Positions 1 through 44,582 of a stretch of DNA of 44,582 nt are shown one piece after another (position 1 is the stretch's first letter; each line of letters begins with the position of its first letter). Location: IMG/VR virus record IMGVR_UViG_3300011888_000001, positions 1 to 44,582 of that record, one strand, 5' to 3'. Both the position numbers and the translations under genes were made by a program. The stretch is from a virus. Under the pieces are notes generated by a model. The model was not told the origin of the DNA. It searched no databases and was given only the letters and a program-made list of their open reading frames with translations.

Positions 1-87
1 TTGTCGACCACCAGAAGACCCTCCCAAGGACTTTGACGTCCTGGACAAACTGCTCATGGGTCAGCGTCTCGTCCGGGTATTCCTCGG
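1..87. repeat. Terminal overlap copy 1 (identical to 44496..44582)
   Basis: Direct letter-by-letter comparison of the two window ends. Confidence 0.95.
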
Positions 88-703
88 AGTTCTCGCTGCG
101 TACTCGCACTGCTCCGCCTGGGAGCTTGTAGAGGAACTTCACTCTCAGCATGCCGGCATGGTTGAACGCGTAGACCTCGCCATCAATGATGGATGTGTCG
201 AAGCGGTCGAAACCAATCACAGCGCCGTCCGAGATCAGGCGCTCCATGCTCCTGCCTTTAATGCGCGCGCACGCTGCAGCTGACGGATCTACACCTGCAC
301 TGCGCAGTACGTCACGACCAAACCTAAGCTGACTTCCCGCAATCTCCGTGACCTCGGTCATACCGCCCCCGCCGGCAAATTCCACCTCAGCGTAAAACGG
401 AACCTCGACGTCGTCACTGTTAGCCGGCTCGCTTTCTTCCCAAAGGCCAGCATCGCCGAGCAGTACGGCGTTCGACTCTGCTTTACCAGGGTCTCTAGAT
501 CGCGGCACTTTGCCACTCGTCAGCCATTCGGGATCGCAGTCCAGAACACGCGCGAGTTGCAACAAATTTTTGCCTTTGGCGCCATTCGTCCCCGCCATCC
601 AGAACGTGATGGTGCCGCGGGACACACCGACCCGCTCCGCCACGTCAGTTGGGCGAAGGCCTAGGGCCTGCATTCGAGAGCGCATTCGGTCTTTGAATTC
701 CAT
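1..703 (-). CDS. CI-like prophage repressor, HTH + S24 (LexA-type) autopeptidase; 5' 234 codons, continues across the window junction
   Basis: Missing from the ORF track because it runs off the window start. Minus-strand ATG at 703-701. My translation gives MEFKDRMRSRMQALGLRPTDVAERVGVSRGTITFWMAG (HTH), EVEFAGGGGM (Ala-Gly cleavage-type site), and IKGRSMERLISDG plus VKFLYK (Ser/Lys dyad context of S24 peptidases). Confidence 0.88.
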   Translation of the reverse strand, partial: MEFKDRMRSRMQALGLRPTDVAERVGVSRGTITFWMAGTNGAKGKNLLQLARVLDCDPEWLTSGKVPRSRDPGKAESNAVLLGDAGLWEESEPANSDDVEVPFYAEVEFAGGGGMTEVTEIAGSQLRFGRDVLRSAGVDPSAAACARIKGRSMERLISDGAVIGFDRFDTSIIDGEVYAFNHAGMLRVKFLYKLPGGAVRVRSENSEEYPDETLTHEQFVQDVKVLGRVFWWST

Positions 704-791
704 GGCAGAAGTCTAAGCAAACATTCGTTTAGATACTTGTCTTCCTTCCTTTAGATCTCTAAAATGCAGAGACCAAAGCTGGAGAAAGACC
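704..791. promoter_or_regulatory. Divergent immunity control region (OR-like) with candidate rightward promoter and operators
   Basis: Candidate PR: TTGTCT (737-742), 17 nt, TAAAAT (760-765). The palindrome TTTAGA-tc-TCTAAA (750-763) overlaps the spacer and -10. A second inverted repeat, TCTAAgC-N8-GtTTAGA, lies at 712-733. The region sits between the divergent repressor (ATG 703, minus) and cro-like gene (GTG 792, plus). Confidence 0.6.
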
Positions 792-995
792 GTGACCTAC
801 GATCAAGCACTCGCCTTTTACAAGACCCAATCAGAGCTGGCCAAGGCGCTGCGGCTGAGCCGTGGGCGCGTGACTCAGCTCAAGGACCAGGGTGGCTTCA
901 GCTACCCGACTCAGTGCGTCCTCGAAAAGCACTCGAAGCGCAAGCTCATCGCCCGCTACGAAGACGTCCCCCAGACCAAAATCCAAGCCGCTTAA
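792..995 (+). CDS. Cro-like HTH regulator (67 aa)
   Basis: GTG start with GGAG at 781-784. HTH-like SELAKALRLSRGRVTQL. Divergent from the repressor, which is the classic cI/cro layout. Confidence 0.75.
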   Translation: MTYDQALAFYKTQSELAKALRLSRGRVTQLKDQGGFSYPTQCVLEKHSKRKLIARYEDVPQTKIQAA

Positions 996-30952: not shown

Positions 30953-32758
30953 ATGAGCACACTTCGCGCCAATCGTTTGATGTCGTTGGACGGATCTGCA
31001 GCGGTCGATATTTCGTCGCTGATCCGGCTGGACAACCTGTCCCAGCTGCGTAGCTACAGCCGATTCTTCGGCAGCCGGATCAACGTGGACGGCGCGGTCG
31101 CGGCCGGTGACGGCGGTGGCGGCCTCTACCAGTACGATGCCTCGGACAGCGTGACCCCGGATGACGGTGGCTCGGTGATCGTGGCGTCCGACGGCGGTCG
31201 CTGGAAGCTGCGTCAGAACACCCCTATCTGCGCGAACCAGTTCGAGTCTGTCGCCAAGGCCATGGCTTCGGCTGTTCGTGAGCTCTGGATCACCCAGGAT
31301 ATGACCGTCTCGGCCAACCAGACCTGGCCGGCGGGCAAGACCTACACCGTCATGAACAACGCGACGATCACGGTCAGCCCCGGTATCACCCTGACTATCC
31401 GCGGCAAGCTGAACGCTCCAGTCCGCCGGATCTTCCAGGGCAACGGTTCCGTGATCGGCCTTCGCTATGCCCGCCCCGAGTGGTGGGGCGCCGTGGGCGA
31501 CAACAACACCGACTGCGCCGCCGCCTTCAACTCCGCCAGTGCCTGCGTGGCCGGCAGTGTTGCTTCCGACTCGGTTCGCCCGACCATTGAAATTGGCCCA
31601 GGCCAGTTCCTGATGGGCGCCACCTGGCTGGTCAATGCCTCGGCCAACGTCGGCATCGAGATCTTCGGCCAAGGCTCCATCTTCTCCGGCACCCGCCTGG
31701 TGGCCGCGTCGACTTTCTCCGGCAGCCAGCTGATGTACATCCCGGGCAGCACCGATGGCACCCAAAAGATCGTGGATATCCGCATGCGCGACTTCGGCCT
31801 GGTGCCGCGCACCCCAGGCTCTGGTCCTTCGATTGGCCTGCAGATGGGCACCACCAACGCCGAGCTGATCGGACTGCGTGAATCCCCGATTCAGGATCTG
31901 TACATAGCCAACTTCGGGCGCTCGCTGTACCTGTGCAACACGCGCCTGCTGAACTTCGCTCGGATCGGCATCTGGAACGATGGCATGACCTCGGCCAGTG
32001 CTTGCCTGTTCATTGAAGCAGCAGGTCGGTTCTGCGGTGACATGAGCTTCCGCAACTGCCAGCTGACCAACCAGGCTACCGTGGTGAACAGCCGTGATAT
32101 CAGCCTGTCGGTGAACGCACCCTTCTCCGGCTCCACCGGCTACAACCAGCTGGCCGGTATCCGCTTCACCGAGTGCGTCCTGTACCCGGCCTACCAGAGC
32201 GTCTACGGCACTGCCCTGGCCGGCGGCCTGATGACTGACCTTTTCTTCCAGAACTGCCAGTGGGACGGTGATTCTTACGAGATGATGAACCTCATCGCCT
32301 CGGGCTCTGGCTCTCTGGTGCGCTGCATCAAGGTGAACGGCTGCTACATGTTCGGCGGCAACAAGTCGAACACCAACTCCCAGCTTGAGTTCAACGGCAC
32401 CGCCTCGGGCGCCGTACGCGACGTTACCGTGACCGGCACCACCATCGGCCAAGGTGCATCGCGCGCCATCAACCTGGCCGGCACCGTGGTCGGCGCCACC
32501 CTCACCAGCAACGTCATCTACGACTTCGGCAACCCGACCAACGCGGCGATTGAAGTAGGGCCTTCTTGCTCGCGCGTGACCGTCACCAGCAACCGTGCCG
32601 ATCGGTCGGGCGGTGCGTCGTTCCCGTACCTGATCCAGCTGGATAACGGTGCCGACTTCCTGATGGTCACCGGCAACACCGGCCTGGGGATCGTCAGCTC
32701 AGCCACCGTGCAAGACAACTCCACCACCACGAACAAGGTTGTGGCGAACAACCTGTGA
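30953..32758 (+). CDS. Tailspike 2: second beta-helix depolymerase-like protein (601 aa)
   Basis: PEWWGAVGDNNTDCAAAFNSA (pectate-lyase-like opening motif). Repetitive N/G/T/S/V-rich beta-helix-like sequence. Lacks the gp17-type adaptor. Confidence 0.7.
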   Translation: MSTLRANRLMSLDGSAAVDISSLIRLDNLSQLRSYSRFFGSRINVDGAVAAGDGGGGLYQYDASDSVTPDDGGSVIVASDGGRWKLRQNTPICANQFESVAKAMASAVRELWITQDMTVSANQTWPAGKTYTVMNNATITVSPGITLTIRGKLNAPVRRIFQGNGSVIGLRYARPEWWGAVGDNNTDCAAAFNSASACVAGSVASDSVRPTIEIGPGQFLMGATWLVNASANVGIEIFGQGSIFSGTRLVAASTFSGSQLMYIPGSTDGTQKIVDIRMRDFGLVPRTPGSGPSIGLQMGTTNAELIGLRESPIQDLYIANFGRSLYLCNTRLLNFARIGIWNDGMTSASACLFIEAAGRFCGDMSFRNCQLTNQATVVNSRDISLSVNAPFSGSTGYNQLAGIRFTECVLYPAYQSVYGTALAGGLMTDLFFQNCQWDGDSYEMMNLIASGSGSLVRCIKVNGCYMFGGNKSNTNSQLEFNGTASGAVRDVTVTGTTIGQGASRAINLAGTVVGATLTSNVIYDFGNPTNAAIEVGPSCSRVTVTSNRADRSGGASFPYLIQLDNGADFLMVTGNTGLGIVSSATVQDNSTTTNKVVANNL

Positions 32759-32763
32759 TCACC

Positions 32764-32785
32764 AGGCCCGCTACTCGGCGGGCCT
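32764..32785 (+). terminator. GC hairpin without U-tract (possible weak terminator/processing site)
   Basis: AGGCCCGC-tactcg-GCGGGCCT with no T-run downstream. Confidence 0.35.
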
Positions 32786-32810
32786 CACCCTCTCAAATGG
32801 AAATCAAATC

Positions 32811-34223
32811 ATGGCAGATTTACCGTGGTACGAAGTCGTGCAGCCGAGTTTCGTCAATGGCCGCTATTACCAAGTGGGCGAGGTAGTTCAGGTGGACGGC
32901 GCGGTCGGTGATGGCTTCTCGCCATTGAGCCCGGGCGATGCCGCCAAGAAGCGCAACATCCCGGTCCTGCTGCCGCACGACCTGTCGAATCAGCATCTGA
33001 ATCCGACCACTAGCGTCTTCACCAAACACCTATTCGGGCGTCTGAAGACCCAGGCCGCGCCGAACGCCATCACCTTCCACATGCAGGTGGAGCTCGAGAC
33101 CGACTTCCTGTCCTTCCGAATCGGCATCCCCAACATCCACACCGCAGCGGTGACCGGCGTTAAGGCCAGCGTCGGGGTGTGTTCATCAGTTCCGGCAGCA
33201 GACTTCCAGGTCTTCCTGGCGCCGGAGAACAACGAGTGGATCGACTGCACCTTCAACGGCGCAGCCACGGTTGACCTGCCGGCGCAGATCGCCGTCGAGC
33301 GCTACAGCATGAGCTGGTCGGACTTCGTCTTCCTACCCAGCATTCCGCGGGTTGACGCCAGCACCGGGCGCACCCTGGTCATGATCCGGATCGAGTACCC
33401 TGCCGGCTCCACCCTGAGCACCCCGTACAACGACCTGTACTTCTGGCGCGGTGCCAGTGCGGCGCGTGTGTACCGCAGCTCGAACCAGGAGGTCCAAGGC
33501 GTCACCACCAAATCGGCCTTCACCCAGAACAACGTGGTCAGCTCTGGCGGCGATACCAAGGCAGTCGTGCCGGCCATCCAGTACACCACGCTGGCCCGCG
33601 GCCATCAGCTCATGATCATGGGCGACAGCATCCAGGAAGGCCTGGGCGGCAACGTCCGCGACTTTGGCGCCATCCAGCGGGCGGCCTACGAGATTTCCAC
33701 ACCCTCGCGTCCGATGGAGTATTTCAACGCCGGCCTGCACGCTCAGGCACCGGACACCTACAGCCGGATGCTGGAAGACCACGGCCCCAATGTGCGTCCG
33801 ACCATCCTGACCTACTCGCCCTGGTCCGGGAACGATGTGACTGCCGGCAGCGGCTTGACTACCGCGGCCATGCGCCGGCTGAAGGGATCACTGGGCCGGG
33901 TGTACGCCACGCTGCGTACCGGCGGCATGAGGCCGGTGATTCTCTTCCCGGAAGCGCTGCCTGCCAACACCGCCTACCGAAATGTGGGCGCCGCCGACCA
34001 GATCCGCCGCGACTACAACGACAACGTCTTGCCCCAGTTCCAGGGCGGGTACGTCATGAAGGGCTACGCCGCGGCGCTGACCGGCACCCGCGACGCCAGC
34101 GGCCAGGACCAGATCAAGGCCGGCGCAACCGGTGATGGAGTCCACCCGAACGACGTGGGGTACGAACTGCTTAAGCCTGTCGTGAAGGCCTACCTGCAGC
34201 AGCTGATTGACCGCACTCGATAG
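32811..34223 (+). CDS. SGNH/GDSL-family esterase with about 300-aa N-terminal domain (470 aa)
   Basis: In-frame ATG 32811. LMIMGDSIQEGLGG (block I GDS), SPWSGND (block III), GDGVHPN (block V DxxH). It is the last gene before attP. Confidence 0.75.
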   Translation: MADLPWYEVVQPSFVNGRYYQVGEVVQVDGAVGDGFSPLSPGDAAKKRNIPVLLPHDLSNQHLNPTTSVFTKHLFGRLKTQAAPNAITFHMQVELETDFLSFRIGIPNIHTAAVTGVKASVGVCSSVPAADFQVFLAPENNEWIDCTFNGAATVDLPAQIAVERYSMSWSDFVFLPSIPRVDASTGRTLVMIRIEYPAGSTLSTPYNDLYFWRGASAARVYRSSNQEVQGVTTKSAFTQNNVVSSGGDTKAVVPAIQYTTLARGHQLMIMGDSIQEGLGGNVRDFGAIQRAAYEISTPSRPMEYFNAGLHAQAPDTYSRMLEDHGPNVRPTILTYSPWSGNDVTAGSGLTTAAMRRLKGSLGRVYATLRTGGMRPVILFPEALPANTAYRNVGAADQIRRDYNDNVLPQFQGGYVMKGYAAALTGTRDASGQDQIKAGATGDGVHPNDVGYELLKPVVKAYLQQLIDRTR

Positions 34224-34226
34224 CCT

Positions 34227-34254
34227 GGTGCAAATCGGGTGCACCGACTGCACC
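34227..34254. repeat. GGTGCA repeats, candidate integrase arm sites (P arm)
   Basis: GGTGCA at 34227 and 34238 (11-bp spacing). Inverted TGCACC at 34249. GGTGCACC (34238-34245) is palindromic. Confidence 0.5.
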
Positions 34255-34348
34255 AAACCATGTGGGTGCGTGTTGGGTCAGGCTTGGTTGAAATGAGGAC
34301 CTGGAGCGGGTCCCAGCAGGGGCGCCGCTCTAGATTCGTACCCGAGCG

Positions 34349-34411
34349 ACGGATTCGAAATCCGTTGAGTCAGCAATGGCTCCTAGGGTTCAAATCCCTA
34401 TCTCTCCGCCA
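34349..34411 (+). other. attP core: 3' two-thirds of a tRNA-Ser(CGA) (anticodon arm to CCA), no 5' half
   Basis: Anticodon arm ACGGA-TTCGAAA-TCCGT (anticodon CGA), long variable arm, T arm TAGGG-TTCAAAT-CCCTA, acceptor 3' strand TCTCTCC-G-CCA. The complementary GGAGAGA is absent upstream. Lies directly upstream of the integrase gene. Confidence 0.75.
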
Positions 34412-34420
34412 CAAATCAAG

Positions 34421-34457
34421 GGTCCCAGGGGTTTGCGCCTCTGGGGCCTTTTTCGTT
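34421..34457 (+). terminator. Terminator downstream of the tRNA fragment
   Basis: Imperfect stem GGTCCCAGGGG/CCTCTGGGGCC followed by TTTTTCGTTT. Confidence 0.6.
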
Positions 34458-34469
34458 TCTGGCGTATTT

Positions 34470-34509
34470 GGTGCAATTCTGGTGCAACGGGTGCGCTCGC
34501 TACACCAAA
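34470..34509. repeat. GGTGCA repeats, candidate integrase arm sites (P-prime arm)
   Basis: GGTGCA at 34470 and 34481, GGTGCG at 34490, and inverted TACACCAAA at 34501 (compare TGCACCAAA at 34249). Confidence 0.5.
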
Positions 34510-34532
34510 TTCAGCAAGCTAAACTTGTAGGC

Positions 34533-35510
34533 ATGGCTACCTACATCAAGCGCGGCGACGCATGGCGCGCCCAGATCCGGCGCAAAGGACACCCAGCACT
34601 GTCGGCCACCTTCGACACGAAGGCGGAGGCACAGCGCTGGGCGGCTGAAATCGAAGGCGACATGTCCCGAGCTCGGTTCGTCGATCTCCGGGAAGCCGAG
34701 CAGACCACCCTGGCCGAAGCACTCGAGCGGTACCGCCGCGAAGTGACCCAGGGCAAGAAGGGTCGGCGCCAGGAAGAGATCAGGATCGACCGCCTAGTCG
34801 AGTCCCGCTATGGGGCCATGTCCCTCGCTGCCATCAAGTCATCCACTATGGCCGACTACCGGGATTCCGAACTGAAGCGCGGCGTATCGACGGCAACCGT
34901 CCGTCTGAATCTGGCAATCCTGTCCCACCTTTATACGGTGGCGGTGAAGGACTGGGGTATCCAGGGCCTGGTGAACCCCTGCAAGAACATCCGGATGCCG
35001 AAGGGTAGCAAGCAGCGCGAACGTCGTCCGACGCAGGCTGAACTGGACAGGCTGTACAAGGCCGCCGGCGAGATGAACGCTCAGCTGCCAGTCATCATTG
35101 AGCTGGCTATCGAAACGGCCATGCGCCGCTCCGAGCTGGTCATGCTGCGGAAAGATCAGATACGGGGAAAGGTGGCGTTCCTCGAGGACACGAAGAACGG
35201 CGAGCGCCGGGCGGTACCCCTGTCGAAGCGGGCCCTGGAGCTCTTGGCGGGATTGCCCACGCCGATTGGCGGCGGGCGGTACTTCTCGCTGACTCTGAAT
35301 ACCGTCAGCAACTACTTCCCGAAAGCCTGCGCCGCGGCTGGAGTGGAAGGCTTGCGCCTTCACGATCTCCGGCACGAGGCGACGAGTCGGCTATTCGAGC
35401 GGGGCTTTAACATGATGGAAGTGGCCTCCATCACAGGCCACAAGACCCTTGCGGTCTTGAAAAGATATACCCATCTCAGCCCGCACGACCTTGCTGAGCG
35501 TCTTGGATAG
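34533..35510 (+). CDS. int: Tyrosine integrase (325 aa)
   Basis: ATG 34533 (MATYIKRGDAWRAQIRRKG...). Catalytic-type motifs AMRRSEL, HDLRHE, ITGHK, RYTHL. The track ORF start at 34239 reads through the tRNA fragment and is rejected. Confidence 0.92.
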   Translation: MATYIKRGDAWRAQIRRKGHPALSATFDTKAEAQRWAAEIEGDMSRARFVDLREAEQTTLAEALERYRREVTQGKKGRRQEEIRIDRLVESRYGAMSLAAIKSSTMADYRDSELKRGVSTATVRLNLAILSHLYTVAVKDWGIQGLVNPCKNIRMPKGSKQRERRPTQAELDRLYKAAGEMNAQLPVIIELAIETAMRRSELVMLRKDQIRGKVAFLEDTKNGERRAVPLSKRALELLAGLPTPIGGGRYFSLTLNTVSNYFPKACAAAGVEGLRLHDLRHEATSRLFERGFNMMEVASITGHKTLAVLKRYTHLSPHDLAERLG

Positions 35511-35841: not shown

Positions 35842-36092
35842 CACGCAACCCCCCGCAACGTCGGCGGCTCTCGCCGCTTTCTCCCCGGCTTGGCCTTATG
35901 ATGCTGGCCGTCCACGTACTCGCGCAGGAACTTGCGCACATCCTCTCTCAGCCAGGCGTGCTTGCCCGCGATCTTCGTTCCCTTCGGCAGCCACTCAACG
36001 CCCCGGCGAATTCCTTCCCTGATAGACGCCTCGGTCTTGCCCAGCATCTTTGCCAGGCCGGCCAGGTAGATCACTTCGCTTTCTTCGCTCAT
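35841..36092 (-). CDS. xis: Excisionase-like HTH protein (83 aa)
   Basis: ATG 36092 after AGGAG. VIYLAGLAKMLGKTEASIREGIRRGVEWLP...KHAWLREDVRKFL resembles AlpA/Xis-type HTH proteins. Lies adjacent to int. Confidence 0.6.
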   Translation of the reverse strand: MSEESEVIYLAGLAKMLGKTEASIREGIRRGVEWLPKGTKIAGKHAWLREDVRKFLREYVDGQHHKAKPGRKRREPPTLRGVA

Positions 36093-36268
36093 GGCTGCTC
36101 CTTGGCCTGGCCGCACATGACTGGTTTATACCAGGATGGCGGGCTAGAAGTTCCTATCTCGCAATCGATCGCATCGTTTCCGCACTTGTCACATCTGCCA
36201 GTGCTGAAACTTGATCCCGATGTCATCCAGCAATTCCCGCACTTTCTGCACTTGAAATAACCCTTCAT
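36089..36268 (-). CDS. Zinc-ribbon-like mini-protein (59 aa), not in the ORF track as a separate gene
   Basis: Hand translation: MKGYFKCRKCGNCWMTSGSSFSTGRCDKCGNDAIDCEIG... (CxxC...CxxC). ATGA overlaps at both ends. A/T-rich codons. Confidence 0.55.
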   Translation of the reverse strand: MKGYFKCRKCGNCWMTSGSSFSTGRCDKCGNDAIDCEIGTSSPPSWYKPVMCGQAKEQP

Positions 36269-36537
36269 ACGCCTCCCGTGTCGCGCATAGCGGCGTCGAT
36301 GTCTGCGTCGGACCAGTCGGCGGGGTGCGCATCGTTTGCACGCAGCCACCGATACCGCCCCGTCTCCGCCTTCAGCCGCTGGATCTCCGGCACGCATGCG
36401 GTGTGCAGGTCGGAGCCAGCGCCGAGGCGTAGCGCGTTGCCGATCTGCTGCAGCACCTCGCCGTGCTTGTTGGTCATTTCGAGCTGAGCACGCAGCTGCT
36501 CTATCTCTGCCCGTAGCCGCTGTACGAGGATGGTCAT
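36265..36537 (-). CDS. Coiled-coil protein with RYRWLR motif (90 aa)
   Basis: Track ORF. LRAEIEQLRAQLE... followed by GRYRWLRAND, a motif I associate with Ea22/ead-type lambdoid early proteins (from memory). Confidence 0.55.
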   Translation of the reverse strand: MTILVQRLRAEIEQLRAQLEMTNKHGEVLQQIGNALRLGAGSDLHTACVPEIQRLKAETGRYRWLRANDAHPADWSDADIDAAMRDTGGV

Positions 36538-37001
36538 GGCTGGGCTCCTGCAAATCGCTCGATCAGTTCGGCCTCGAGCTGAGCGACTTTCCCGTCGAAA
36601 TCTTCTACGGTCGTAGTCCTTGAGCAGCGGGCCTCCTCATCAAAGCCACAAGGGACGCCGCGCTCAGTCCACCAGGCATGGGCGAAGTCGAATACTTCGC
36701 GCGTTATAGGCGTGTCGAACCAATAGGAATTTCCTGGGCGCCCATTCCATACGAGGCCAGGGGTGGCTCCTATCAATCTCTTCAGCCGCACACCAAGCCG
36801 GCCTTTGCTCAACGGCAACTGCAGATTCTCGCGGCAAATCATGTACTGGGCCTGTGAATAGAAAATCCAGGGACGGTCCTTGTTCATGAGGCCTTTCCTG
36901 TCGCCGAAATAGTTTTCGATCACCCCTCTGGCGGCGCGCTTCACCTGCTCTCGCCAGATGGCGCGCAGGATTTGTTCATCCGATACCTTTTTCGTAGACA
37001 T
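36534..37001 (-). CDS. Hypothetical protein (155 aa)
   Basis: ATG 37001 preceded by GAGGA (alternative ATG at 37013). No recognisable motif. Lower GC than its neighbours. Confidence 0.55.
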   Translation of the reverse strand: MSTKKVSDEQILRAIWREQVKRAARGVIENYFGDRKGLMNKDRPWIFYSQAQYMICRENLQLPLSKGRLGVRLKRLIGATPGLVWNGRPGNSYWFDTPITREVFDFAHAWWTERGVPCGFDEEARCSRTTTVEDFDGKVAQLEAELIERFAGAQP

Positions 37002-37055
37002 GACAGTCCTCATCCCGCGCCAGGGCGCAGGTTCAATGGGGTAGGGCTTATGGGA

Positions 37056-37229
37056 TCAGGCGGACTTGCGAGGCCGGCCGCCCTTGCTGTGTGGCGGTAG
37101 GTTCAACCAGAGTCGCAGGTCGTTGATGTTTCCGTGAGAGCAGCCGGTGACATACATAATGTCCCGGGGCGCATAGCCAGCCAGTAGCATCGCGATGATG
37201 GCGTCCTTGTGCTTGGTGGATGCGCTCAC
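37056..37229 (-). CDS. Small HTH protein (57 aa)
   Basis: GTG 37229 after GAGGAG. DAIIAMLLAGYAPRDIMYVTGCSHGNINDLRLW is HTH-like. C-terminal GGRPRK. Confidence 0.5.
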   Translation of the reverse strand: MSASTKHKDAIIAMLLAGYAPRDIMYVTGCSHGNINDLRLWLNLPPHSKGGRPRKSA

Positions 37230-37306
37230 GGTCTTCTCCTCGCCAGCGGCCAGCACTGGCAGTCGTCGTCAGCCTTGTGGCAGCGGGGGCAGGTCAGAAG
37301 GATCAT
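37226..37306 (-). CDS. Cys-rich micro-protein (26 aa), not in the ORF track
   Basis: MILLTCPRCHKADDDCQCWPLARRRP. GGAG lies 6 nt upstream of ATG 37306. GTGA overlap with the downstream HTH gene. Confidence 0.3.
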   Translation of the reverse strand: MILLTCPRCHKADDDCQCWPLARRRP

Positions 37307-37309
37307 GCG

Positions 37310-37585
37310 TCACTCCTCCGGCCACAAGTTGTACTTGTCGCAGATTGCTGTCATGTCCTGGCGGGCGCGGTACACCGAGATTTCGCCGGCATCGATCTGA
37401 ACCTGCTTGATGTATCGCATCCCAGGCTTGATGGAGCCCTCGTCAGCGTCGACTTTCTGGATGACATCCCAATCCGCCGGCTCGAATTCTTCCTGCCCGA
37501 GCCCCGCCCAGCAGTACCAGTGATATGCCCCGCACGGGTATTCCTTGCGAGCAACCGGGGTGCTTTCGCTCAGTATCGTGGCCAT
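37310..37585 (-). CDS. Hypothetical protein (91 aa)
   Basis: ATG 37585 (TGATG coupling). MATILSESTPVARKEYPCGAYHWYCWAGLG... Confidence 0.55.
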   Translation of the reverse strand: MATILSESTPVARKEYPCGAYHWYCWAGLGQEEFEPADWDVIQKVDADEGSIKPGMRYIKQVQIDAGEISVYRARQDMTAICDKYNLWPEE

Positions 37586-38067
37586 CACTCACCCCCTTCG
37601 CCGGCCTGGGCGCGCATGGCGTCGATCCGGTCGAGATCGGCGTACATATCGCGCATAGCCTGTAGTTCGTGACACCAGTATCCGTTCAGGTCTTCAGCTG
37701 TGGGGTCCAATCCGCCCGGCTCCAGATCGATCAGTCGCTCCATGGCGTTAAGCCAGGACCGGCGATGGGTTCGCAGGTTGTCGGGTAGCACCGCCTCATC
37801 CCCATGCGCGGCGGCAGGCGTGGCGGCGACCTCCTGCCCGATACGATGGTCTTCCTCTGCCCAGCAGTAGCAGGGTTGCCAGTCGCCTTGGCGCAGTACG
37901 ACATGGTTCGAACGTTCCCGGTATTTCCGGGCCGGCAGCTCACCAGCGGCGGGCTGGGCGAGCCTGAAGCCTGCCTTGAAGTACTCGAAGCCGGTGCGCG
38001 TCATCTTGGTCTGCCCGGTTACTTCGCAGTGCCGGGTATAGGCCTGCTGCAGCTCTTGCTCATTCAT
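37585..38067 (-). CDS. Hypothetical protein with QPCxCWA..DHRIG.EV module (160 aa)
   Basis: ATG 38067 (MNEQELQQ...). Shares a motif block with 3471..3827. Confidence 0.6.
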   Translation of the reverse strand: MNEQELQQAYTRHCEVTGQTKMTRTGFEYFKAGFRLAQPAAGELPARKYRERSNHVVLRQGDWQPCYCWAEEDHRIGQEVAATPAAAHGDEAVLPDNLRTHRRSWLNAMERLIDLEPGGLDPTAEDLNGYWCHELQAMRDMYADLDRIDAMRAQAGEGGE

Positions 38068-38365
38068 GCTCAGCACCTCGCACGGCGGGCTTGCTTACTG
38101 GATACCACCAACCCTCTCCGCGTCTTTCGGCGGGCTGGGTGGCGAGGGCGGCGCGGGCTTCTCGCTCCTCCCGTCCGATCACGTAGAACTGCTCCAGCCA
38201 GTGGCCGGCAGGTGGCGGGTTGGCGCCCTGGGCGCCGAACATCATCGCGCCAATGATGGCGTCGATTAGGTCCTGCTTGTAGCGGTTGTCGCCGTCGATA
38301 CTCAGACCTTTCAGGCGTAGCTGGGTGAGCTGCTCATTCATCGCAGCTTGGTCATTCTGGGTCAT
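38060..38365 (-). CDS. Hypothetical protein (101 aa)
   Basis: Track ORF. No clear SD. An alternative internal ATG (MNEQLTQL) exists. Confidence 0.45.
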   Translation of the reverse strand: MTQNDQAAMNEQLTQLRLKGLSIDGDNRYKQDLIDAIIGAMMFGAQGANPPPAGHWLEQFYVIGREEREARAALATQPAERRGEGWWYPVSKPAVRGAEHE

Positions 38366-38409: not shown

Positions 38410-39903
38410 TCAGGCGAATATTTCGAGCTGAGTGCTCGCGGGCGCCGATTTGGCAGCTCGCATTCGAGATGCCTCGTGCTCTATGCGCGCCCGGGCGATA
38501 GACAGGTAGGCCGCATCCAGCTCGCAGCCGATGAACCGCAACCCTTCCCTTATGGCCGCCTTGCCGGTAGAGCCAGAGCCCATGAACGGGTCCAGCACGA
38601 TGCCGCCTGGCGGCGTCACCAGGCGGCACAGGTAGGCCATCAGGTCGGTCGGCTTGACGGTGGGATGGGTGTTGCCGGTGGTTGCGGTGTTCTCGACCTT
38701 GCGCAGGGTGACGCCATGGGCGAACTGGGGGCCAGGGTCCTGCAGGCCCTCGTTGCGGTCTTTGCGGCTGGTCTTGGCGCAGTAGAAGAATCGGGCGGCG
38801 CTGCCAGAGTCAGCACGCGGGGTATATTGCTTGCCGCCGTGGCTCAAGGCTCCGTAGCAGTTGGCCCTGGACCGCTGGTTGTCGCTACTAACGCCCTGCT
38901 GGCCAGGTGCATCAGGAAACAGCGCTACCACCTCGTCGCTGCCATCGTGGATCAGGTTGGCGGGCCAGCGGCCGTCCTTCGTGTGCCCTTCGAAGGTCAC
39001 ACCCTCCTGATGGGTCTTTCCGGTCTTGTTCTGATCGGCACCAGGCGCCATCCGCTGCACGGCGTAGGCATACCCCTGAGAATCTCCAGAATGTACCCGG
39101 CACCCATCGATATTCAGTGCCCCAGCCCCATGCGCCAGAACGTTCGCCGCAACAGTCCCGGCGAGCGGCTTGCGGGCGACGGTGATCGGCTCCATGGCCG
39201 GCTTGAGGGCCGTGCCCCAGCCAGACCACTGCTGCGCCAGTTGAGTACAGGCATTCCCCTTATCAGCGCGCTCATAATTCGCGCCAGACATCGATCCGTT
39301 TCTACTCACCTCGGCGCCTGCTCGACCACGCCACACTCTCTCGATAAGCTCGGACCAGCGCTCATGCTCAATACCCACTACTCTACAGATAATTTCCCAT
39401 TTCTCAGGCGACGGAAGGCTGACTCCCCAGCCCTTGGGATCTTCGCTGTATGGCGTATCGAAGCGCATCGTGAAGCCACACTGCGAGTCGATATTCTTGC
39501 GCGACAGACAGCTTTCCTCAACTGATCGGCGAAGATCAGCCTTGAAGGCAGCAACATCTACGCCGCCCATTTTGTCGATCGCCTTGCTCACGTCCAGCGA
39601 TTTGGGAAAGCCCGATCCGTAGACCCAGGCAATCATGTCGCGGATCTCGAACCCGGCGTCCTCAATGCGGACCGCCATCCGGTGCTGGGTTCGGGTGCCG
39701 GCGAACGCCAGCAGGTGGCCGCCAGGCTTAAGAACGCGAAGGCACTCGGCCCAAATTTCGGTGCTCGGAACGTCATAGTCCCAGCGCTTGCCCATGAAGC
39801 TCAGGCCATAGGGCGGATCGGTCACGATGCTATCGACCGAGCACGCGGGCATGGCCCGCAAGGTCTCCAGGCAATCGCCCAGATGCAGGGTGTATCTCTC
39901 CAT
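38410..39903 (-). CDS. Orphan DNA methyltransferase, beta-class N6A/N4C family (DPPY), 497 aa
   Basis: Motif IV TDPPYG at residues 28-33. Motif I DPFMGSGSTG near the C-terminus. HPTVKP and RWPAN motifs are present. About 300 aa separate the conserved blocks. No adjacent restriction gene. Confidence 0.88.
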   Translation of the reverse strand: MERYTLHLGDCLETLRAMPACSVDSIVTDPPYGLSFMGKRWDYDVPSTEIWAECLRVLKPGGHLLAFAGTRTQHRMAVRIEDAGFEIRDMIAWVYGSGFPKSLDVSKAIDKMGGVDVAAFKADLRRSVEESCLSRKNIDSQCGFTMRFDTPYSEDPKGWGVSLPSPEKWEIICRVVGIEHERWSELIERVWRGRAGAEVSRNGSMSGANYERADKGNACTQLAQQWSGWGTALKPAMEPITVARKPLAGTVAANVLAHGAGALNIDGCRVHSGDSQGYAYAVQRMAPGADQNKTGKTHQEGVTFEGHTKDGRWPANLIHDGSDEVVALFPDAPGQQGVSSDNQRSRANCYGALSHGGKQYTPRADSGSAARFFYCAKTSRKDRNEGLQDPGPQFAHGVTLRKVENTATTGNTHPTVKPTDLMAYLCRLVTPPGGIVLDPFMGSGSTGKAAIREGLRFIGCELDAAYLSIARARIEHEASRMRAAKSAPASTQLEIFA

Positions 39904-44123: not shown

Positions 44124-44180
44124 ACTTTAGAAACCTGAACAAAATCCGTCAACCCCAAAATTTAGAAATCTATAAATTTT
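44124..44180 (-). promoter_or_regulatory. Candidate leftward early promoter (PL-like) with operator motifs (OL-like)
   Basis: On the minus strand: TTGACG (44152-44147), 17 nt, TAAAGT (44129-44124). TTTAGAAAC (44126-44134) overlaps the -10. The near-palindrome TTTAGAaaTCTAtAAA (44161-44176) resembles the OR palindrome at 750-763. Confidence 0.6.
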
Positions 44181-44193
44181 TTGCGAGCGCACT

Positions 44194-44216
44194 AAAAAGC
44201 CCGCACGCGGCGGGCT
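44194..44216 (-). terminator. Intrinsic terminator ending the repressor operon
   Basis: GCCCGC (44199-44204) / GCGGGC (44210-44215). On the minus strand the stem is followed by TTTTTAGT. Confidence 0.75.
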
Positions 44217-44236
44217 TCTTCAATAGGTCAGGGGTA

Positions 44237-44476
44237 CTAGAAGAACTGCTTCAGCAGCAGCCATGCGAAGAAGGCCGCCCCAATCCCGACGAACACCAGG
44301 TCTTCGGTCTTAGCCTTCTCGCTCCTGATAGAGCTGTAGAGCGCGCTCCCCAGGCATAGCAGCATGCCGGTCGCAAAGAGGAGGCCAGCGTGGCGCCATG
44401 AAAACAGATAGGCGATGGAGTCCACGGCGATAAATGCCAGGCCGGCGCCAAACGCATAAGCTGGCGCGTCCTTCAT
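44237..44476 (-). CDS. Small three-TM membrane protein (79 aa) coupled to the repressor
   Basis: ATG 44476-44474 overlaps the repressor stop TGA 44475-44473 (ATGA). MKDAPAYAFGAGLAFIAVDSIAYLF...AGLLFATGMLLCLGSALY...LVFVGIGAAFFAWLLL. The track start (GTG 44506) would lie inside the repressor gene. Confidence 0.7.
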   Translation of the reverse strand: MKDAPAYAFGAGLAFIAVDSIAYLFSWRHAGLLFATGMLLCLGSALYSSIRSEKAKTEDLVFVGIGAAFFAWLLLKQFF

Positions 44477-44582
44477 CGCCTGGGCGACCTGCGGATTGTC
44501 GACCACCAGAAGACCCTCCCAAGGACTTTGACGTCCTGGACAAACTGCTCATGGGTCAGCGTCTCGTCCGGGTATTCCTCGG
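44473..44582 (-). CDS. 3' end of the same repressor gene (stop TGA 44475-44473)
   Basis: Reading through the 87-nt overlap gives ...FWWSTIRRSPRR followed by a stop. The total is 241 codons when the circle is closed. Confidence 0.85.
   Translation of the reverse strand, partial: EEYPDETLTHEQFVQDVKVLGRVFWWSTIRRSPRR
44496..44582. repeat. Terminal overlap copy 2 (identical to 1..87)
   Basis: Direct letter-by-letter comparison. Implies a circle of 44,495 bp. Confidence 0.95.

Follow-up and report, generated by a model that had tools for sequence, protein, structure and literature searches.

A predicted three-helix membrane protein encoded downstream of a CI-like repressor gene: a possible superinfection exclusion factor of Pseudomonas prophages

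The repressor operon of the phage recorded in IMG/VR as IMGVR_UViG_3300011888_000001, whose entire stretch of 44,582 nucleotides was analyzed here and is termed the window, contains a single gene between a CI-like repressor gene and a terminator-like hairpin. This gene of 79 codons (the small gene) encodes a protein predicted to form three transmembrane (TM) helices. It belongs to a Pseudomonas family whose members adjoin S24-type repressor genes. A role of the small protein in the lysogen is well supported. Among the specific functions weighed below, superinfection exclusion at the inner membrane ranks first, as a tentative proposal drawn by analogy with known systems.

Coding evidence for a small gene overlapping the repressor gene

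The small gene and the repressor gene occupy the following positions.
44237..44476, minus strand: small gene by translation, 79 codons, ATG at 44476-44474 and stop codon TAG at 44239-44237
44473..44582, minus strand: 3' end of the CI-like repressor gene, last 36 codons and TGA at 44475-44473
1..703, minus strand: 5' part of the CI-like repressor gene, ATG at 703-701, running across the window ends

The start codon of the small gene overlaps the repressor stop codon as ATGA, precisely where the preliminary description, made by reading the sequence without database searches, had placed it, and the 79-codon open reading frame (ORF) proposed there was found. The product has 79 residues: MKDAPAYAFGAGLAFIAVDSIAYLFSWRHAGLLFATGMLLCLGSALYSSIRSEKAKTEDLVFVGIGAAFFAWLLLKQFF. 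A direct repeat of 87 bp joins the two ends, positions 1-87 of the window being identical to 44496-44582, and the genome therefore assembled as a circle; it is complete, with a unique length of 44,495 bases and 62% G+C. The joined repressor consists of 241 residues and contains the Pfam domains HTH_3 (E 2.7e-10) and Peptidase_S24 (E 1.4e-19). Among the PHROGs it was assigned to PHROG 4, 'transcriptional repressor' (E 2.5e-44), so that its earlier identification holds for the full product. It displays the features of a CI/LexA-type repressor, namely an N-terminal helix-turn-helix (HTH) domain, a C-terminal S24 domain, a divergent cro-like gene and operator-like sites common to two promoters. 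With LexA and lambda CI as models, the Ala110-Gly111 site, Ser152 and Lys189 are candidate self-cleavage residues.

The coding status of the small ORF was assessed with L001, the only close relative, a 1.9-kb metagenomic contig that carries the same repressor, small ORF and terminator and is 87% identical to the window in DNA sequence. The two small ORFs are 84% identical, with 39 of 240 bases differing in a 5/1/33 distribution over the three codon positions. The changes amount to 33 synonymous and 3 non-synonymous codons, and the ratio of non-synonymous to synonymous substitution rates (dN/dS) is 0.019 at a dS of 1.2, compared with 0.139 for the repressor gene. Because the substitutions are mostly synonymous, the small ORF is, judging from this comparison, a real gene under purifying selection. 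A spurious ORF, in which GC-rich non-coding DNA ahead of the terminator would happen to translate into a hydrophobic-looking sequence, might be suspected from its shortness and from a database name that says no more than 'hypothetical protein', but it is refuted by these substitutions, and its probability is negligible also in view of the length, helices and motifs kept in homologs down to approximately 32% identity. Selective constraint on the family is uneven: the dN/dS values of the family gene in the L002/L003 and L005/L011 pairs are 0.21 and 0.45, and those of the corresponding repressor genes are lower (0.10 and 0.04).

An alternative GTG start at 44506, located 30 nt upstream, would give an 89-residue form and is the choice of the gene callers for P0001. 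Within the 30-nt extension, all three differences from L001 would change an amino acid if read in the ORF frame, yet they are silent for the repressor. The ATG within the ATGA overlap is therefore the likely start of the small gene on the substitution evidence.

Operon layout and the control regions

The elements flanking the two genes are as follows.
44194..44220, minus strand: intrinsic-terminator-like hairpin, AAGAAGCCCGC-cgcgt-GCGGGCTTTTT, found by folding and a repeat search
44124..44152, minus strand: PL-like sigma-70 promoter, TTGACG-17-TAAAGT, reading away from the operon into the early-left genes
44126..44139: operator-like site over the -10 element of the PL-like promoter
44161..44174: operator-like site just upstream of the -35 element of the PL-like promoter
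737..765, plus strand: PR-like promoter, TTGTCT-17-TAAAAT, driving the cro-like gene
750..763: operator-like site, the reference copy of the motif, self-complementary at 12 of 14 positions, in the repressor-cro intergenic region and overlapping the PR-like promoter
792..995, plus strand: gene for a Cro-like regulator of 67 residues, divergent from the repressor gene, matching PHROG 409, 'transcriptional regulator' (E 8.5e-10)

The genome order is thus OR/PR - cI - small gene - terminator - OL/PL. An ORF check of the interval between the repressor gene and the terminator returned the small gene and no other, in agreement with the earlier claim that it is the sole gene coupled to the repressor gene ahead of the terminator. 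The 14-bp motif TTTAGATCTCTAAA was searched genome-wide with up to three mismatches, which gave five matches (strands counted separately) at three places, all of them in the two control regions. The number of matches expected by chance is 0.47, and five were reached in none of 100 shuffles.

The hairpin has arms of 11 nt (44194-44204 and 44210-44220) separated by a 5-nt loop and followed by T residues, and it begins 16 nt past the stop codon of the small gene. The terminator announced in the preliminary description is therefore real as a hairpin with T's, whereas its spacing is 16 nt and not 20. A consensus terminator scan did not report the hairpin because the T-run lies partly within the stem, and the fold by itself is unexceptional (z -1.5). 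The stem is unchanged in L001, with the difference confined to the loop. A GC hairpin with a T-run follows the homologous gene in seven of the eight related loci inspected, and in five of those seven, the ones with enough downstream sequence, a TTGAC-type promoter sequence comes next; the latter was read by eye, as were palindromes around this promoter in the L002 group. The L001 contig ends at 1856-1879 in a Nextera adapter (CTGTCTCTTATACACATCT) directly after the terminator, which is a library artefact and not a genome end.

Predicted structure and topology of the small protein

An AlphaFold2 model built from a 17-sequence alignment consists of helices at residues 4-24, 30-51 and 57-78, with a mean predicted local distance difference test (pLDDT) value of 85.7 and a predicted template modeling (pTM) score of 0.68. 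Hydropathy agrees with this arrangement, and the three hydrophobic helices described earlier are thus recovered by both approaches. Across 27 family members, the mean number of Lys and Arg residues is 2.1 in the N-terminal tail, 0.5 in loop 1, 2.3 in loop 2 and 0.6 in the C-terminal tail. Because the positive charges are concentrated in the N-terminus and in loop 2, which is Lys-rich (KxKxED), the positive-inside rule predicts that both are cytoplasmic, giving an N-in/C-out topology. The location of the protein is probably the inner membrane.

Under this prediction, the periplasmic exposure is limited to a loop of approximately 5 residues and a tail of approximately 3 residues, and the cytoplasmic segments comprise approximately 10-13 residues each. 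With so little of it outside the membrane, the protein is most unlikely to work as an enzyme or to sense a ligand, and it must act through intramembrane contacts, oligomerization or its short cytoplasmic segments. The membrane sensor that the preliminary description had offered as an alternative is less likely for the same dimensions.

A Pseudomonas family adjoining S24 repressor genes

A word-indexed search of 5.8 billion proteins returned the L001 protein as the sole match. An exhaustive phmmer search of 1.84 billion (1.84e9) representatives detected 16 proteins at E<1e-3, all of 77-91 residues, and profile searches enlarged the family to 33 clusters of 78-90 residues. In total, the family comprises approximately 40 sequence clusters, with an overall length range of 77-92 residues. 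All named members are annotated as 'hypothetical protein' of Pseudomonas (P. putida, P. fluorescens and Pseudomonas spp. 7-41, UMAB-40, A-RE-23 and MT3), and the family is restricted to this genus. Gly31, Phe34 and Gly37, at the start of helix 2, are invariant, and Phe9 and Trp72 are nearly so. Common features are an Asp in helix 1 (Asp19), the KxKxED loop and a GAAFFxWL motif in helix 3.

Searches beyond these collections added little. A tblastn search with three family members against 50,697 phage records found no match, with a sensitivity for TM proteins that the low-complexity filter may lower, and megablast of the immunity region against phages found none either. Two scans of the GTDB species-representative genomes returned no relatives, and an exact-sequence context look-up of P0047 returned no record. 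In IMG/VR, only two prophage contigs carry the family gene, both with the same synteny. The window protein and 17 members gave sub-threshold hydrophobic noise only against Pfam, PHROGs and PADLOC. A profile search of PDB sequences had no matches at E<=1, and Foldseek comparison of the AlphaFold2 model with PDB and BFVD yielded best E-values of 2.2 and 0.86, both to generic helical bundles. The earlier statement that the protein has no recognizable motif holds across these resources, and no homology to a lysis or structural protein, which would have spoken against the exclusion or defense reading, was found in them.

The genomic context of relatives was read at 19 loci representing 15 distinct contexts (L001, L002, L003/4, L005-7, L008, L009, L010, L011, L013, L015, L016, L017/18, L019 and L020). 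In all 15, the family gene shares its strand with an HTH+S24 repressor gene and comes directly after it, although L010 is a short contig whose truncated upstream ORF received no Pfam call. Each context is an immunity region of the lambdoid kind, in which genes of the cro/cII/O/P types lie across from the pair. The adjoining repressors are of at least five types with lengths of 210-290 residues, and their S24 domains are approximately 20-30% identical between types. Start and stop codons overlap by 4 nt in the window, L001, L005-7, L011 and L017/18 and by 11 nt in L009, whereas the genes are separated by 12-14 nt in the L002 group, as in most of the remaining loci, and by 43 nt in L008. The repressors with the 4-nt overlap carry a basic C-terminal tail beyond the S24 fold (WWSTIRRSPRR or WSTVRRAPRR), which in the window corresponds to repressor residues 231-241 and DNA positions 44473-44505; those with the 12-14-nt gap end in VIDTKMTGL.

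Similarity within the family correlates with that of the adjacent S24 domain (Spearman 0.60) and not with that of the HTH domain (0.11), in pairs that are not independent. This correlation is what plain physical linkage predicts, and we do not count it as evidence of interaction. In some relatives, an opposite-strand gene encoding 89-187 residues stands just past the terminator of the family gene (L002 6569-6838; L009 2388-2951), which suggests a hot spot of moron insertion beside the repressor/small-gene pair.

Comparison with known exclusion systems

The layout of the window matches lambda cI-rexA-rexB-OL, except that one very small gene takes the place of rexA and rexB. The small gene shares with rexB the repressor-operon position, the strand following cI and a terminator just before OL/PL. 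RexB is integral to the inner membrane, as the product of the small gene is predicted to be, and both proteins are presumably present in all lysogens. RexB is larger, however, with 144 residues and four TM segments compared with 79 residues and three helices, and no RexA-like partner gene was found between the repressor gene, the small gene and the terminator, or in the contexts of the 15 relatives.

Two established injection blockers, P22 SieA and T4 Imm, are also small inner-membrane proteins. Imm is close in size (83 residues) and mostly hydrophobic, and according to its record annotation it blocks the entry of superinfecting DNA. It differs in belonging to a virulent phage, in being expressed early in infection and not from a prophage repressor operon, and in possessing a charged C-terminal tail. 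SieA comes from a podovirus with tailspikes, and the window phage likewise appears to be podovirus-like and to bear tailspikes. It is a protein of 164 residues encoded in the immI region under its own promoter and not after the repressor gene, and the slot between c2 and OL is empty in P22. SieA is a prophage-expressed inner-membrane protein; the small protein has three predicted TM helices and a repressor-operon position that would be compatible with such expression and localization.

The gp30/gp31 genes of mycobacteriophages Butters and Sbash are encoded near the immunity repressor. Both pairs are reported to include a lysogenically expressed membrane protein that takes part in heterotypic phage defense. 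Each system needs a second gene, for a cytoplasmic partner, and belongs to a different phylum, and no homology between them and the small protein was detected in any search.

A further comparison is offered by prophage P1 of P. putida KT2440, a lambdoid-type Pseudomonas prophage with defense genes in its repressor operon. A verified RexAB-type defense (PP_5643/PP_5644) lies downstream of the CI-like repressor PP_3896, and the uncharacterized genes PP_3897 and PP_3898 are located between them (PMC12894663). This defense differs from the arrangement in the window, which has one three-helix protein, in that it needs a RexA-like DNA-binding protein together with a RexB-like protein of four TM segments. 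The small protein therefore stands outside every named exclusion family compared, although it could still work like one.

Superinfection exclusion as the first-ranked candidate function

Superinfection exclusion is ranked first because both lambda and P. putida P1 have exclusion genes at this position, because small inner-membrane proteins such as SieA and Imm block injection and because the predicted architecture suits helix-helix interference. According to this proposal, the small gene would be the second and last cistron of a prophage maintenance operon, transcribed with the CI-like repressor gene in lysogens and during the establishment of lysogeny, and translated by termination-reinitiation at the ATGA overlap. 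The operon would be closed by the intrinsic terminator just ahead of OL/PL. The product, a predicted 79-residue bundle of three TM helices buried almost entirely in the inner membrane, would act within the membrane through helix-helix contacts. Its target may be the conduit through which a superinfecting phage delivers its DNA, or else a host factor of the inner membrane on which that phage depends, and lysogens would resist superinfection with repressor immunity unchanged.

Several observations weigh against this proposal. Comparison of the family profile by hhalign gave probabilities of 0.5% for lambda RexB, 0.5% for T4 Imm and 0.1% for P22 SieA, and no RexB family appeared in the Pfam and PHROG scans. 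In PADLOC-DB 2.0, no family was assigned to the window protein, and the best value among 17 members was E 0.076. Deletion of PP_3897 or PP_3898, which may or may not be members of the small-protein family, left the sensitivity to phages 7B and 9A unaltered (PMC12894663). Unlike typical defense morons, which come and go, the family gene is never apart from a repressor gene across deep divergence, and the very low dN/dS in the window/L001 pair, below that of the repressor, is unusual for a gene engaged in an arms race, although the two other pairs gave higher values. Co-transcription with the repressor gene and translational coupling are, moreover, properties that we infer, as we do membrane insertion. 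Because of the fixed linkage to the repressor and the strong purifying selection in one pair, roles in the switch and in envelope conversion stay alive. The preliminary description had proposed an exclusion or defense gene of the lysogeny operon; synteny and operon layout support a membrane protein of that operon, while the defense function remains an analogy of position.

Alternative functions

Foremost among the alternatives, although unlikely, is a factor of switching or maintenance that acts with the repressor or on the lysogenic state by tuning induction, stabilizing lysogeny or coupling the state of the envelope to the switch. Such a factor would be consistent with a family gene that always adjoins an S24 repressor gene, of one or another of at least five types, and is often translationally coupled to it, with the very low dN/dS of the window/L001 pair and with family similarity that follows the S24 domain and not the HTH domain. 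This tracking, however, is expected from adjacency alone in non-independent pairs, and the window and L005 are 69% identical in S24 but 32% identical in the small protein. Lambda RexA/RexB have been reported to assist the transition from lysogeny to lytic growth (10.1101/2021.04.19.439022). Because the window repressor itself has candidate Ala-Gly, Ser and Lys residues for the usual RecA-dependent self-cleavage, by analogy no extra factor would obviously be needed, and just 10-13 or so cytoplasmic residues per segment would be available for contacting a soluble repressor. A narrower version, which we regard as less probable than either this role or the envelope role considered next, is that the small protein is not a defense moron but a dedicated membrane partner of Pseudomonas S24-type prophage repressors, through which the lysis-lysogeny switch would respond to the condition of the envelope or membrane. 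It might, for instance, recruit the repressor, protect it or gate an induction that does not require RecA. This would explain the constant linkage to the repressor and the frequent translational coupling.

Lysogenic conversion comes next in probability and is likewise unlikely. Here the protein would inhibit or modify an inner-membrane machine of the host, such as O-antigen polymerase, chain-length control, the type IV pilus platform or a transporter, thereby altering surface properties or fitness, with phage resistance at most a by-product of receptor loss. The nearly all-intramembrane architecture and the strong conservation in one pair are compatible with such a role, the restriction to Pseudomonas fits a genus-specific host target, and the tailspike-like proteins of the window phage suggest a surface-polysaccharide receptor. 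Small Pseudomonas phage proteins are reported to inhibit type IV pili (PMC8764522; bioRxiv 2024.03.05.583538). Against these points, the small protein has no similarity to such proteins in Pfam, PHROGs or PADLOC and its operon contains no glycosyltransferase or polymerase gene, which leaves analogy alone as the basis for this role.

An abortive-infection effector resembling RexB is improbable. Such a protein would form an oligomeric ion-conducting pore, opened by an unlinked or host-encoded sensor, and would depolarize the cell. The small gene does occupy the rexB slot of lambda, and its product has helices rich in small residues, the invariant Gly31, Phe34 and Gly37 and a frequent Asp in helix 1. 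The Rex-like systems of mycobacteriophages and P. putida, in which a membrane protein is reported to be paired with a cytoplasmic sensor, offer a precedent. A gene for a RexA-like or other partner is, however, absent from the operon in the window and in the relatives. The hhalign result and the differences from RexB in length and helix number also argue against this function.

A lysis-related protein of the holin or antiholin kind, or a toxic small membrane peptide, is practically excluded. The size and the three hydrophobic helices superficially resemble class I holins, but no holin family was matched in Pfam or PHROGs, a charged C-terminal tail is lacking (the tail has approximately 3 residues) and the predicted topology is N-in/C-out. 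The gene is part of the repressor operon instead of a lysis cassette, and holin and endolysin are encoded at other places in related prophages. Constitutive expression in the lysogen is also incompatible with a lethal holin.

Genome setting

The window phage is temperate and of the lambdoid type. In the terminase region it shares approximately 79% identity with Pseudomonas phage vB_PaeP_Tr60_Ab31, and it encodes two proteins that resemble tailspikes or tail fibres. The PR side carries the cro-like gene and an O-like replication gene, and the PL side carries genes for an exonuclease, a Mu Gam-like protein and a DNA methyltransferase. Further features of the genome are listed below.
34239-35510: tyrosine-type integrase gene
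38410-39903, minus strand: gene for a DNA methyltransferase of 497 residues in the early-left operon, matching PHROG 67 (E 4.7e-78)
32739-34223, plus strand: ORF of 494 residues between the tailspike-like genes and the integrase gene, with no PHROG match and a sub-threshold GDSL/SGNH hydrolase match (E 0.0048)
35898-36260, 37220-37672 and 37804-38256, plus strand: ORFs of 120-150 residues within the otherwise minus-strand early-left region, with no Pfam or PHROG match

The methyltransferase may serve in anti-restriction. The 494-residue ORF could encode a tail-associated esterase or be a conversion gene, and the three plus-strand ORFs at 35898-38256 may be morons or spurious.

Implications

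Every lysogen of a temperate phage expresses the genes of the repressor operon, and these have repeatedly proved to have exclusion or defense functions, as in lambda Rex and the RexAB-type system of P. putida. In the window, this slot holds a family confined to Pseudomonas that has no relative in any curated library searched and always stands beside a CI-type repressor gene in the contexts read. If the small protein blocks superinfection, it would be among the smallest single-protein exclusion factors known in Gram-negative prophages and would be relevant to Pseudomonas phage therapy and biocontrol. If instead it modulates the switch, a regulatory circuit familiar from textbooks would gain a component in the membrane.

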